This document shows, one piece after another, positions 3,707-61,459 of a DNA stretch of 64,000 nt. This DNA comes from a virus (lineage: Duplodnaviria > Caudoviricetes). A program made the position numbers and the translations under genes. The notes under the pieces were generated by a model. The model was not told where the DNA came from. It did not search any database and saw only the letters and a program-made list of their open reading frames with translations. Position 1 is the stretch's first letter. Each line of letters starts with the position of its first letter. Location of the stretch: IMG/VR virus record IMGVR_UViG_3300025018_000093; one strand, written 5' to 3'.

Positions 3707-4435
3707 ATGAATACAGACCAAATGGCGAAGCGAATCTTGACCCGAGTTTTGCGGGCGAGTTCCGTGTCCAGCTCTGACCTCCGGGACGCACTGAACCACG
3801 TATCGGATCTGGCTGGGCGCACACTTCGGGTGGCGGACTTTGATCTCTCCCGCCCTCAGCTTCTCCCCCTGCAGAAGCTCTACGACTATGATGACATCAG
3901 TGCCTGGGCAGAGTGGACTGCGGGAGAGCTTCTGGAATACGAAGAGGACGAGAGAGAAGAAGAGGTAGCTAGATTCCGGGGAGCCAACTGGGCTCGACGC
4001 GCTCTCAAGTGGACCCCTCAGAACATGCCTCCTATCATCGTGGTGATACCGCGAGACAAAGGGACGGAGATCGGGGACGGTCGCGGTCGAGTATCCCTGG
4101 CGCTAGGACTCGGGTGGGACAAGATCCCCACCGTCATCGCAACAGAGCGTTGGAACCAAGACCTTTCGTGGACCCCGGCACGAAATACCGTCTACTGCGC
4201 TGAGACAGCGGCGGGCCGTGGTGGTCCGCCCCTACCTAGAGGGTGTCATGCCTACAATTCACGACTTGTTACCGAAGTGAGGAGAGGGTGTCATGACCAC
4301 TGCAACGTTGCTTCTGAACGCTTCCTACGAGCCCTTACGGGTGATCCCCTGGCACAAGGCGATCACTCTTGCTTTGCTTCAGAAGGCAGACATCCTGGAG
4401 AGCTACGAGGGCAAGGTTATCTGTGCAACCAATGA
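3707..4435 (+). CDS. ParB/Srx-like domain protein; the C-terminal ~90 aa look like run-on
   Basis: MPPIIVV...EIGDGRGRVSLA...IPTVI motif; the tail overlaps the HNH gene by 143 bp. Confidence 0.55.
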   Translation: MNTDQMAKRILTRVLRASSVSSSDLRDALNHVSDLAGRTLRVADFDLSRPQLLPLQKLYDYDDISAWAEWTAGELLEYEEDEREEEVARFRGANWARRALKWTPQNMPPIIVVIPRDKGTEIGDGRGRVSLALGLGWDKIPTVIATERWNQDLSWTPARNTVYCAETAAGRGGPPLPRGCHAYNSRLVTEVRRGCHDHCNVASERFLRALTGDPLAQGDHSCFASEGRHPGELRGQGYLCNQ

Positions 4436-4790
4436 CGTCTACGCCTGGCCAGCGGTAGCACGTCTTCGTTCTCGTGTGTCCTGGAGGGACCGTGGTGTAC
4501 GCTTCAGCCGTACAAACGTGTACAAGCGGGATGACTTTACTTGTCAGTTCTGTGGGAAGAGACATGCTCCGGCTCAGTTGACGTTCGACCACGTTCTGCC
4601 GAAGTCCCAGGGAGGACCAACATCCTGGACGAATATCGTGACGGCATGTCTCTCTTGCAACCAGCGTAAGGGAGCCAAGACACCCAAGCAAGCGGGAATG
4701 GCACTACTGCGGGAACCACGTGAGCCGACGTGGTTCCAGAAGGACCTTGTGGCCTACCAGGAAGTGTGGGAGCCCTACCTCTGGACCTAG
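4293..4790 (+). CDS. HNH endonuclease (McrA-like)
   Basis: LLLNASYEPL, NVYKRDDFTCQFCG, LTFDHVLPKSQGG, NIVTACLSCNQRKG. Confidence 0.95.
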   Translation: MTTATLLLNASYEPLRVIPWHKAITLALLQKADILESYEGKVICATNDVYAWPAVARLRSRVSWRDRGVRFSRTNVYKRDDFTCQFCGKRHAPAQLTFDHVLPKSQGGPTSWTNIVTACLSCNQRKGAKTPKQAGMALLREPREPTWFQKDLVAYQEVWEPYLWT

Positions 4791-4881
4791 CCTCCCAACT
4801 CGCCCGCAAGGGCAACCTGGGCCTCTTGAACTCACAGACGCACATGGTAGTATGTGAATAGCTGGACTTCGGTCCAGCCGC

Positions 4882-5068
4882 CCCAGGGGAGCCTGACGGA
4901 TAGGCGCTCGCAAACGGAACGAGTACTGTAAAAGGGTATCGAGACGTTGACATGACGTAACATGCGGAATTTGCGGAGGCACCGAATGGCTCTCAGCAGG
5001 GTCTGTAGGGAAGCACGTTTGGCCGCGTGTTTACTCGATATAAGTGGGTTCGACTCCCATCCCTGGGA
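4882..5068 (+). ncRNA. tRNA-like RNA with a ~120-nt structured insert at the variable-arm position
   Basis: acceptor CCCAGGG(4882)/CCCTGGG(5061)+A; D arm GCCT-GACGGAT-AGGC; arm CTCGC-AAACGGA-ACGAG; T arm GTGGG-TTCGACT-CCCAT; insert closed by TATCGAG/CTCGATA. Confidence 0.7.
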
Positions 5069-5092
5069 TAGGTTACTATGGAAGGCCAAGCT

Positions 5093-5614
5093 CTACTTCT
5101 GGGCTTGGCCTTCCTGCTCGCGCTTGGACCGCAACTGGTGGAGAACCCGCAGGAGGGTTTCTACAGGTTGCCATAGTCCATACACGGACTCATAGAAGCT
5201 GTCTGTGATACGTCGCACATGATCGTATCTGCTTGAAATGATCCAGTCCTGCTTCGTTTTTGTGGGAAGCCACATCAAAGCACCTGTCTGCTGTGAGACA
5301 CACAGAACGAGTTGCGGGACAGGGCGCTTCCCCTCCCATCCAGATACGGTATCGATTAGAATCGTCGGGTGCGGGAAGTCTTCCGGGGTGTGGAAAACTA
5401 CATTCCGGCTCTTCACCTCCATTAGCACACCCTCGCACAAGACGTCGCTAAGCTGTTTGTATCTCCCAGCATCCGCAATGGTGGCGCGAATACCCTGAGG
5501 CAGTACTTGCGTGTCCAACCCCTGGAGCTGGAAGAACAGAGCAACGTACCTCTCTCAGGCATGTCCCGTTTTGCACTCCCGAATGAACAAGGCGTCGTTT
5601 TCAAACCAATCCAC
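5093..5614 (-). pseudogene. PD-(D/E)xK nuclease-like gene with an in-frame TGA at codon 20
   Basis: GGAGG then GTG 5614: MDWFENDALFIRECKTGHA*ERYVALFFQLQGL...SDVLCEGVLMEVKSR. Confidence 0.65.
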
Positions 5615-59882: not shown

Positions 59883-60706
59883 GCCACAGGTACTACACAA
59901 CCCCACCTTTCACGGTACTGGTGGCGCATCCCCGTCGAAAAGCGTTTCGCAACCAGATTGTGCGTGACAATTCAGGACAGGCCCAGGTATCCCTCCTGAC
60001 TGGAGATCCCACTGCCTCCTCGGGTAGCATCACAGTCTTGGACGCAGGGTTTCTGGTGACAGCGCTTCCCGCAAGGGGAGGGCTCACGCTAACCCCACCT
60101 CTGACAGTAGGGGTTGTCGTCACTATCAATGGCAATACTCTCACTGGGGTTGCAGGGGCAAGAACACCGGGGGCCAATAACTTTCAAGTTACAGCTTCGG
60201 ATGTGGCGGCGGAGATTGTCGCTGCTATCAATGATGCTGCTAATGCCTTTAAGACAGACGTGGTTGCATGCCGTACGGGTAACTTCGTTGGCTTGACCGC
60301 TGTTACAGCGGGAGCTGCTGGGAATAGCCTTACGCTTGCGACTAGCGACCCGACGGAGGTTAGTCTGTCTGGCGACACACTCCTGGGTGGTGGACAGTCC
60401 GCTGGACAGTCTGTTTTTCGTCTTGGTCCCTACACTTTGGTCACAGGACTGCACTGGTCTCCCGTGGTGGGAAATATCAACAGCTCCGCCACGGCTCTGG
60501 CAGCGGCGATCAATCGACTTCAGTGTTACAGTGCTACGGCTGCGGGTCCCGTGGTCAATATCGTGGGTCCCCCTGGGGTACAGGATGCGGAAGGTTTGGT
60601 CTTCTCCGTCAGCTATGACGGAGTGGTTGAGAACTTTGCCGTGAGTCCCACCAATGGATTCCTAGGTGGGGGAGCACCCAACATGGGTCCACCTGAGATA
60701 CTCTGA
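59879..60706 (+). CDS. virion structural protein (tail-sheath-like insert domains)
   Basis: AAEIVAAIND / ATALAAAIN repeats, LTAVTAGAAGNSLTL. Confidence 0.6.
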   Translation: MSHRYYTTPPFTVLVAHPRRKAFRNQIVRDNSGQAQVSLLTGDPTASSGSITVLDAGFLVTALPARGGLTLTPPLTVGVVVTINGNTLTGVAGARTPGANNFQVTASDVAAEIVAAINDAANAFKTDVVACRTGNFVGLTAVTAGAAGNSLTLATSDPTEVSLSGDTLLGGGQSAGQSVFRLGPYTLVTGLHWSPVVGNINSSATALAAAINRLQCYSATAAGPVVNIVGPPGVQDAEGLVFSVSYDGVVENFAVSPTNGFLGGGAPNMGPPEIL

Positions 60707-60718
60707 TGAGGTGTTGCC

Positions 60719-61459
60719 ATGACGAAGTTGAAGGGAAAGACTCAGAAACTGAGTAACTATGTTGTTCCAGATGCCCCACAGTCCCCCAGGGATAAGGAAC
60801 TCATCCTTGCGGAGCTACCCCGTAACACAAGGGTGTACGTCAAAGAAGAGGGTGGGAAGCTCAAGTACAAGGAGTTGTCGCAGGTTCGCGACTCCGACAC
60901 GCTTATCTACAAGAAGAACGGGGATCCCGTGCTTATGCGGGGTCGCCCAGGTCGCCTGTCGGAGGACCGGACCAAACTCGAAGTTGCTAACAGTGAAGTA
61001 GCTGAAATCAACCGACAGAGGGATGACTATCTTGCGCAAGACAGTCTGGTTCAGGCAGCAAGGATCAACTCGGATGGTCCGGATGTACTGACAGAAACGA
61101 TCATTCGATTGACGGAGGTAGCCTCCACAATCTCGTTTGAGCGTCAGGAGGCACATCGAACAGGAACCCCAACAAGCATCATTGCACGCCGAGAGGTAGC
61201 TGCTCTGGTGGCTGTTCGAGATGCTTCCCTCAAGCGTATCGACCAGCGCTTGCGCAAGCAGGAGATTGACCTGGAAAGTTTGGCTTTCCGCAATCTCTTT
61301 GTCTACATGGTCAGGACATTCACTGAGGCAATGGATGCCACTGGAATACCAGCAACGGAGATAGACTCCGTTGTATCCTACCTCTCGAAGGAAGTGGACA
61401 CGGAAGAGTGGAAAAACTCGGCTCTCAAGTCGATGGTAGGCCCCTCTTCGGTTCATTGA
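60719..61459 (+). CDS. hypothetical protein, possibly the terminase small subunit
   Basis: position directly upstream of the terminase large subunit; helical C-terminus. Confidence 0.35.
   Translation: MTKLKGKTQKLSNYVVPDAPQSPRDKELILAELPRNTRVYVKEEGGKLKYKELSQVRDSDTLIYKKNGDPVLMRGRPGRLSEDRTKLEVANSEVAEINRQRDDYLAQDSLVQAARINSDGPDVLTETIIRLTEVASTISFERQEAHRTGTPTSIIARREVAALVAVRDASLKRIDQRLRKQEIDLESLAFRNLFVYMVRTFTEAMDATGIPATEIDSVVSYLSKEVDTEEWKNSALKSMVGPSSVH

Follow-up and report, generated by a model that had tools for sequence, protein, structure and literature searches.

Phage tRNA arrays are customarily read as a means of codon supply, and the question raised by the locus described here is what a phage makes from a gene that has the complete frame of a tRNA and, at the position of the variable arm, ~120 additional nucleotides. 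The gene lies at positions 4882 to 5068 (+ strand; 187 nt in total) of a 64,000-nt stretch of the IMG/VR record IMGVR_UViG_3300025018_000093 (Caudoviricetes), which originated from an aquifer metagenome; this whole stretch is referred to below as the window. The element belongs to an undescribed RNA family, of which no account was found in the literature searched, and we hold with high confidence that it is a real, conserved, structured tRNA mimic that does not decode. Our preferred reading of its function, at a probability of roughly 45%, is that of a Y-RNA-like tRNA mimic partnering the protein Ro60; binding between the two is predicted here from sequence comparisons.

Structure and conservation of the element

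A preliminary description of the window had pointed to an acceptor stem, a G at tRNA position 8, a D arm, a hairpin with ACG and A33, a T arm, the helix TATCGAG/CTCGATA, and two upstream hairpins. All of these are present, and they are given here with the other parts of the element (MFE, minimum free energy; P1, P1b, P2, and P3 denote parts of the extra arm):

4802-4813, upstream hairpin with a GCAA loop (sequence)
4861-4878 (+), leader hairpin of 7 bp with a UUCG loop, 3 nt 5' of the acceptor stem (sequence)
4882-4888 (+), acceptor stem, 5' strand CCCAGGG, pairing 7/7 with 5061-5067
4889 (+), G at position 8, followed by A at position 9, directly before the D arm (sequence)
4891-4905 (+), D arm GCCT-GACGGAT-AGGC, stem 4891-4894/4902-4905 (sequence, MFE fold)
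4907-4923 (+), anticodon-like hairpin, 4-bp stem CTCG 4907-4910/CGAG 4920-4923, loop C-AAACGGA-A (sequence, MFE fold)
4911-4916 (+), pseudoknot 5' strand CAAACG in the anticodon-like loop, pairing 6/6 with CGTTTG 5016-5021
4937-4943 (+), P1 (helix that closes the extra arm), 5' strand TATCGAG, partner 5034-5040
4944-4958 (+), extra hairpin ACGT-TGACATG-ACGT, particular to the window copy and missing in typical members
4961-4967 (+), P1b 5' strand CATGCGG, partner CCGCGTG 5023-5029, equivalent to the GG/CC pair of typical members
4972-4981 (+), P2, small hairpin TGC-GGAG-GCA, whose middle pair is not kept in every member
4982-5009 (+), P3 branch: CC/GG pairs, GAAT/TGTA internal loop, 6-bp stem GGCTCT/AGGGTC, loop CAGC
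5010-5022 (+), junction strand GAAGCA-CGTTTG-G, in which 5016-5021 is the pseudoknot 3' strand
5023-5029 (+), P1b 3' strand CCGCGTG, partner 4961-4967
5034-5040 (+), P1 3' strand CTCGATA (sequence, MFE fold)
5044-5060 (+), T arm GTGGG-TTCGACT-CCCAT (sequence, MFE fold)
5061-5068 (+), acceptor stem, 3' strand CCCTGGG, and discriminator A5068; CCA is not encoded (sequence)

The canonical tRNA frame is complete (i.e., a 7-bp acceptor stem, a D arm, and, adjoining the acceptor, a T stem of 5 bp that carries a GTTCRA loop), and the anticodon-like loop holds ACG at 4914-4916 with A at position 33. P1 is a perfect 7-bp helix enclosing ~90 further nt, and the internal loop of P3 is of the loop-E type and contains the invariant CCGAATG. 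The MFE fold of 4882-5068 is a cloverleaf with the insert (z = -3.5), and none of 200 shuffled sequences was equally stable. The inner hairpin AAGCACG/CGTGTTT of the preliminary description can be drawn, but it clashes with P1b and with the loop-to-arm pairing, which match the family. On the window sequence, the nested fold consistent with the family has an energy of -56.9 kcal/mol, to which the pseudoknot duplex adds a further -7.4 kcal/mol, versus -74.1 kcal/mol for the MFE fold. Energy alone therefore does not choose the family fold, which rests on comparative evidence.

We identified 37 homologues, 30 of them distinct, in Streptomyces phages, IMG/VR contigs, and metagenome contigs, each with the full cloverleaf and the extra arm. 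In a blastn search of 50,697 phage records, 48 nt of the insert had matches of 88 to 92% identity in 13 Streptomyces phage records (Alone3, LuckySocke, GiJojo, pSt2308, Francob, Comrade with two records, SparkleGoddess, Belfort, Karp, Stigma, Kela, and JustBecause), and the matches in these isolates always fell in unannotated gaps within tRNA arrays. A pattern search with the shared core matched 9 IMG/VR contigs and 23 metagenome contigs, and the exact core pattern had no match in 185,579 bacterial and archaeal genomes, one per species. A script confirmed that every complete copy has, at the correct spacing, an acceptor stem paired 7/7 and a T stem paired 5/5. Typical members are 152 to 156 nt long; extra hairpins mark a divergent subgroup made up of the window copy and two metagenomic copies (L019 and L028). 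A looser pattern (AAACGGA...GCACCGAATGG) gave 33 further matches in viral contigs, which were rejected: none was recognized by the covariance model described below, and their number equals the chance expectation.

The comparative evidence was drawn from two alignments. A consensus structure was written on an alignment of 27 distinct copies (A1), from which a covariance model (R1) was built, and covariation was measured on a model-guided alignment of 29 copies against 500 shuffles, using five measures. R1 scored family members at 64 to 168 bits and ordinary tRNAs of the same loci at no more than 48 bits; the window copy reached 97.1 bits (E = 2e-22). The copies on contigs L119 and L120 have the same score and length as the window copy and probably bring no extra variation. 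Standard pairs occupied 92.8% of the cells, compared with 74.3% after shuffling and ~50% when partners were slid by one column. Changes on both sides were seen in 28 of 43 pairs, and no shuffle reached any of the five measures. Such changes occur in the acceptor stem (6 of 7 pairs), the D stem (3 of 4 pairs; 99% paired), the T stem (3 of 5 pairs; 100% paired), and at all pairs of P1; all five pairs of the anticodon-like stem covary, and P1b (family columns 165-166/301-302) is 93% paired. The preliminary description had named homologues without covariation as an outcome that would speak against a functional RNA, and the opposite, strong covariation, was found.

Across the family, the extra arm comprises P1, P1b (typically GG/CC), and a three-way junction with P2, P3, and a 12-nt junction strand (GAAGCGCGUUUU). 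The consensus of P2 is UGC-GNRN-GCA, and P3 consists of CC/GG pairs, a GAAU/UGUA internal loop, a 6-bp GGCUCN/N'GGGUC stem whose sixth pair covaries (UA, AU, CG, and GC), and a variable loop. All 29 copies agree at ~45 positions of this core, an invariance partly imposed by the search, given that 27 of the 29 were first found by a pattern holding CACCGAATGG and TCTGTAGGGAAG; the GC content of the element ranges from 43 to 66% across phages. No variation was seen in CACCGAATGGCT and GGTCTGTAGGGAAG of the P3 branch among the 29 aligned sequences, and a further member, retrieved with another pattern, reads CCGAAGGG where the others have CCGAAUGG. The invariant core includes CCGAAUG and GUAGGGAA, the latter as in loop E of 5S rRNA.

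The anticodon-like loop differs from that of a canonical tRNA, in which a free 7-nt loop with U33 and a purine at position 37 is expected. In 20 of the 29 aligned copies, it is an 8-nt loop, AAAACGGA, with A rather than U at position 33; the 5' portion of the loop is complementary in sequence to the junction strand of the extra arm. Four of these pairs (AACG/CGUU) are invariant, and the outer two covary in three divergent copies, including that of the window (AAAACG/CGUUUU in typical members, CAAACG/CGUUUG in the window, UCAACG/CGUUGA in L028, and UCAAUG/CGUUGA in L019); in typical members, one mismatch in the outer pairs is common. Cognate loops and strands pair better than swapped ones (means of 4.92 and 4.31 of 6 pairs, respectively; permutation P = 0.00035, based on 13 distinct combinations and ignoring their relatedness). 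The earlier expectation that the RNA is unlikely to decode is supported by A33, by the pairing of the loop to the insert, and by the 8-nt loop of most relatives. Together with the freely varying acceptor stems and discriminators, these features argue strongly for a nondecoding RNA.

Tools for known RNAs passed over the element. ARAGORN called three ordinary tRNAs and no tmRNA in the window, left 4882-5068 uncalled, and called none of the checked relatives' copies. An Infernal search against Rfam, suggested as a check in the preliminary description, gave no match for the window element in Rfam 15, either at the gathering threshold or at E values up to 10, and no tRNA, YrlA, tmRNA, 5S, intron, or ribozyme match was obtained with the window, the element, or the excised domain (for YrlA, at E up to 10 on the element and up to 0.01 on the window). 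One relative exceeds the Rfam tRNA threshold (36.7 bits), and L018 has a sub-threshold tmRNA match of 24 bits.

None of the 13 isolate records carries an annotation for the element gene. In LuckySocke, gene 22, a "hypothetical protein," overlaps the element (OR725497.1, 7780-7918) and is probably a false gene call over the RNA gene. A metatranscriptome run yielded a 211-nt contig that is 95 to 99% identical to the Alone3-type element at a depth of 2, a weak hint of transcription in which RNA is inseparable from carried-over DNA. In L030 (2084-2306, - strand), only the 3' half of the element is present, from GCACCGAATGG onward, fused right behind the end of an open reading frame (ORF); the breakpoint falls within the conserved core, and the intact relative is L022.

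Association with Ro60 and Y-RNA-like genes

Ro60 is a ring-shaped protein of RNA surveillance and RNA quality control that senses misfolded RNAs, 5S among them; in Xenopus, it binds misfolded 5S rRNA precursors. A relaxed Rfam search returned sub-threshold YrlA matches directly beside the element in L018, and we therefore searched for the partner protein of Y RNAs. The Pfam TROVE domain (Ro60/Rsr) is present in seven of the nine scanned phage records with the element, and a "Ro-like RNA binding protein" is annotated in every one of the 13 isolate records that carry the element. A search for RtcB in five phages carrying the RNA found none. In a tblastn search of all loci, the Ro60 gene was located downstream of the element, on the same strand, in several relatives:

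L033, TROVE ORF with its start codon ~45 nt 3' of the element, same strand
L010, L017, and L033, Ro60 alignment starting 27 nt past the element end
L123, Ro60 alignment starting 26 nt downstream
L004 (phage G003), TROVE ORF 267 nt downstream
L034, Ro60 ~0.7 kb downstream
L020, Ro60 ~1.1 kb downstream
Alone3-type phages (L008, L021, and L024; Alone3 and pSt2308), Ro60 2.4 to 3 kb downstream

The element is directly upstream of Ro60 in two lineages and 2.4 to 3 kb upstream in a third.

The RNAs that neighbor the element in relatives also point toward Y RNAs. Sub-threshold YrlA-like matches occur in such neighbors; in L033 and L123, these lie upstream at a distance of a few hundred bases. In G003 (L037 180-1130, corresponding to 60080-61030), five Y-like RNAs surround the element just before the Ro60 gene; they carry a 5' CYGGUGCGMAG, similar to the animal GGUCCGA motif, and a 3' UGAUCUCRG, and two of them have tRNA-like modules. 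In Alone3 (L036 1-700; OR725492 10400-11100), the tRNA array is separated from the Ro-like gene by five tandem unannotated Y-RNA-like genes, which immediately precede the latter and have a 5' NNCGAUGCGYAG and a 3' CUUUUCUAGNN. Comrade (L038 30-250) has two Y-like genes with GGGUCGGAUG.

Candidate bacterial Y RNAs have been characterized by a location near Ro60 on the same strand, the motif GNCGAAN0-1G, and a tRNA-like domain (Chen et al. 2014; PMC4201824). The motif is related to GGUCCGA, which is contacted by Xenopus Ro60, and one bacterial Y RNA with a tRNA-like domain is cut by RNase P and receives CCA (PMC4201824). One phage Ro60 binds two phage Y-like RNAs with a CGAA motif (PMC12135203). 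In the family described here, the invariant ACCGAAUG stands in a bulged helix of the core, and its CCGAAUG resembles, at the level of sequence, both the Ro60-recognition motif proposed for bacterial Y RNAs and the GGUCCGA found in Y RNAs of animals. Among the options listed in the preliminary description, a tRNA mimic and a Y-RNA-like RNA fit best, given the relatives in Y-RNA arrays beside Ro60 and the CGAA-type core motif.

We propose that 4882-5068 encodes a stable small RNA of a phage family, built as a full tRNA frame with a 100- to 150-nt three-way-junction "variable arm." Its junction strand pairs with the anticodon-like loop, locking the molecule in a form that reads no codons. RNase P and 3' enzymes would excise it from a precursor in the manner of the neighboring tRNAs, and CCA would be added; the leader hairpin at 4861-4878 is probably a part of this precursor that RNase P would cut off. 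The mature RNA would then work with Ro60 (Rsr/TROVE) in Y-RNA fashion. Its putative protein-binding face is the invariant internal loop, with CCGAAUGG opposite UGUAGGGAA, which resembles both the Y-RNA Ro60 motif and loop E/loop A of 5S rRNA, and the tRNA body would be a module recruiting or distracting tRNA-handling enzymes. We regard one extension of this scheme as possible but rather doubtful, namely, that the extra arm is a mini 5S/Y-RNA-type module on a CCA-ended tRNA body, representing a new architectural class of Ro60 ligand that couples Ro60 to tRNA handling during infection or, alternatively, occupying or titrating the 5S site of the host ribosome, in the way that tRNAs take this site in mitochondrial ribosomes.

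Several observations weigh against Ro60 as the partner. TROVE is absent from the 64-kb window according to tblastn, a result that does not settle the question for a source contig of 0.2 to 1 Mb, and G002, a complete phage with the element, has no TROVE gene. The distance from the element to Ro60 is 10 kb in Comrade and 37 kb in Kela types. A model scan of the 80 Ro60 loci in IMG/VR closest to that of G003 found the RNA in G003 alone, and blastn revealed close Ro60-bearing relatives of Comrade without the element. Ro60 is common in large tRNA-rich actinophages (351 records related to the Comrade protein and 87 related to that of Alone3) and tends to be located within RNA-gene arrays, so that some co-occurrence and adjacency are expected by chance. 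The CGAA match itself is short, has A rather than G at the first position, and is located in an internal branch rather than a terminal stem; the Rfam YrlA model (RF02553) does not match the element; and the single-sequence MFE fold of the window copy rearranges the pairing in P3. In addition, the core is invariant even though phage Ro60 proteins are only 25 to 49% identical and the phages' own Y-like RNAs differ in motif, which points to a possible partner more conserved than phage Ro60; a conserved host partner fits these data at least equally well.

Alternative explanations

A conserved host partner is central to one rival reading, in which the RNA is a 5S rRNA mimic independent of Ro60 that binds uL18, uL5, bL25, or the large subunit and either titrates them or enters ribosomes. 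The family core (GCA-CC-GA and GUA-GG-GAA) compares with GCG-CC-GA (67-73) and GUA-GG-GAA (102-109) of Escherichia coli rrfH; the shared layout consists of a three-helix junction, a 2-bp CC/GG helix, a loop-E-type internal loop, and GAA, and a core unchanged across hosts of 43 to 66% GC suggests a universally conserved partner. The 5S strand CCGAUGGUAG is also similar to the Y-RNA motifs found here (e.g., CCGAUGCGUAG of Alone3). We consider a 5S mimic unlikely, as the Rfam 5S model (RF00001) is silent even on the excised domain, the local alignment of the core with E. coli 5S gave P ~0.06 for an 8-nt identity in the 3' strand and no significant result for the 5' strand, and parts of 5S are missing; the resemblance was noticed post hoc and is only a lead. 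A similarly low chance is given to a decoy or sponge that would protect phage tRNAs from a tRNA-attacking or tRNA-handling host factor (an acceptor-end or elbow toxin, RNase P, or the CCA-adding enzyme). Such a role would suit an RNA that keeps its acceptor, T, and D arms intact while hiding the anticodon, that is located in phage tRNA arrays without exception, and that is restricted to phages in the genome search described above. It would leave the 45-nt invariant extra domain superfluous, however, and no specific toxin or enzyme is indicated; acceptor stems that vary widely between members imply no single acceptor-reading enzyme.

The same variation bears on the very unlikely case of a dedicated nonribosomal aminoacyl carrier, charged by an anticodon-blind synthetase of the Ala, Ser, or Leu type and used by a nontranslational transferase. 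A long extra arm and a hidden anticodon would be tolerable to SerRS, LeuRS, or AlaRS, and four members, one of which has the weak tmRNA match, combine G3-U70 with A73; however, G3-U70 is confined to 4 of 29 members, both the acceptor stem and the discriminator vary freely, and no aminoacyl-transferase gene is linked. An intron-containing tRNA-Arg(ACG), another option of the preliminary description, would explain the ACG at the anticodon place and the good cloverleaf frame, with the insert removed to give a working tRNA. It is highly improbable, as the insert follows the anticodon arm and precedes the T arm, outside the anticodon loop, and is the most conserved part of the molecule, with which the loop pairs. 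With the insert taken out, A33 and, in most relatives, the 8-nt loop would remain; no group I or group II intron match was obtained at E up to 10, and a normal tRNA-Arg(ACG) is already present nearby in several phages. The preliminary description had also offered an RNA partner of the adjacent HNH protein. An ORF at 4293-4790, identified as an HNH endonuclease by Pfam, does end just 91 nt upstream of the element, but a homologue of this protein was found at none of the 36 other loci carrying the RNA, and neither a HEARO-type nor any other Rfam match was obtained. The HNH gene is therefore read as a chance neighbor, best as a mobile nuclease gene located here by happenstance. A partner or guide RNA of this nuclease can practically be dismissed, as can a decayed tRNA with a random insertion, which is excluded by the strong covariation and the 45 invariant bases.

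Genomic surroundings and known systems

Downstream of the element, a perfect 14-bp hairpin without a U tract (5080-5114, + strand; -28.9 kcal/mol, z = -4.8) may mark the end of a transcript or signal its processing. Consensus scans of 4600-5400, which include this hairpin, called neither a promoter nor a terminator; a promoter-like TTGAAC-N17-TAGTAT noted by hand has only 8 of 12 consensus matches. The window also encodes a ferritin-like protein (PF00210; 1291-2073) and a Cpn60-type chaperonin (PF00118; 9519-11174). Its phage is probably a jumbo phage, judging from the record of the HNH protein on a 0.2- to 1-Mb contig.

The tRNA arrays of relatives contain other genes of interest. A tRNA-Asp(GTC) neighbors the element in several unlike phages, upstream in L001, L003, L018, L020, and L033 (immediately so in L018 and L020) and just downstream in L002. 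ARAGORN reported "tRNA-???" genes with a 2-nt anticodon in L028 (604-677, immediately beside the element) and in L011 (3121-3194). Other over-long tRNA-like genes of 84 to 158 nt, uncalled by ARAGORN, gave weak R1 matches in the same arrays and are probably further families of tRNA-shaped RNAs:

L008, 1836-1962
L023, 3414-3536
L011, 4292-4410 and 3281-3406
L034, 12164-12298
L020, 2096-2248 and 1763-1898
L007, 5483-5640
L033, 4515-4598

Phage tRNA arrays thus also hold conserved tRNA-shaped RNAs unable to decode, and the covariance model R1 could be used to mend phage annotations and to seed an Rfam family. If binding to Ro60 is true, the Y-RNA concept would widen to RNAs of inverted architecture whose acceptor end is free, the cultivable phages of Streptomyces (Alone3, Comrade, and Kela) would represent a tractable system for phage Ro60 particles, and the likeness of the Y-RNA Ro60 motif to 5S loop E would be open to experiment.

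Among known systems, the class II tRNAs (Leu, Ser, and Tyr; RF00005) share with the element the 7/5 acceptor-T branch, the D arm, the GTTCRA T loop, an extra arm placed after the anticodon arm and before the T arm, and the location in tRNA arrays. Their extra arm has 25 nt or fewer, whereas that of the element has 100 to 150 nt with a three-way junction, and the element differs from them in A33, the 8-nt loop paired to the arm, and the lack of a conserved identity set. The tRNA-like domain of tmRNA (RF00023) likewise has an acceptor/T-arm frame around a large pseudoknotted insert, and three or four members of the family have its Ala-type G3-U70. Unlike tmRNA, the element has no reading frame or tag, keeps the D stem and the anticodon-like arm, and has an insert one-fifth as large; the corresponding pair in the window copy is C3-G70, and the core is invariant at every base, without a codon pattern. 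With the loop A/helix V/loop E region of 5S rRNA, the element shares a three-way junction with CC paired to GG beside it in the same register, followed by a loop-E-type internal loop and then a helix with G-U pairs, with P2 standing at the place of helix II and P1b at that of helix I. Helix III and loop C are missing, and the 12-nt junction strand of the element serves the pseudoknot.

Close parallels are also found in YrlA and the other bacterial and phage Y RNAs, with which the element shares a tRNA-like module with D and T arms, a location no more than 2 kb upstream of a Ro60/TROVE gene of the same strand in several relatives, amid genuine Y-like RNAs, a CGAA-type motif in a bulged helix, and occurrence in actinophages. 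The topology is inverse: in YrlA, Ro60 binds a stem made by the ends of the molecule, and the "acceptor" takes the form of a closed hairpin, whereas the element has open acceptor ends and a candidate Ro60 motif in an internal three-way junction at the variable arm. The anticodon-like arm of the element is also locked by the pseudoknot, and its core does not follow the type of the phage's Ro60 or Y RNAs. By its topology, its pseudoknot lock, and its failure to match the YrlA covariance model, the element is distinct from the YrlA-type Y RNAs, and we group it with Ro60-linked tRNA mimics.

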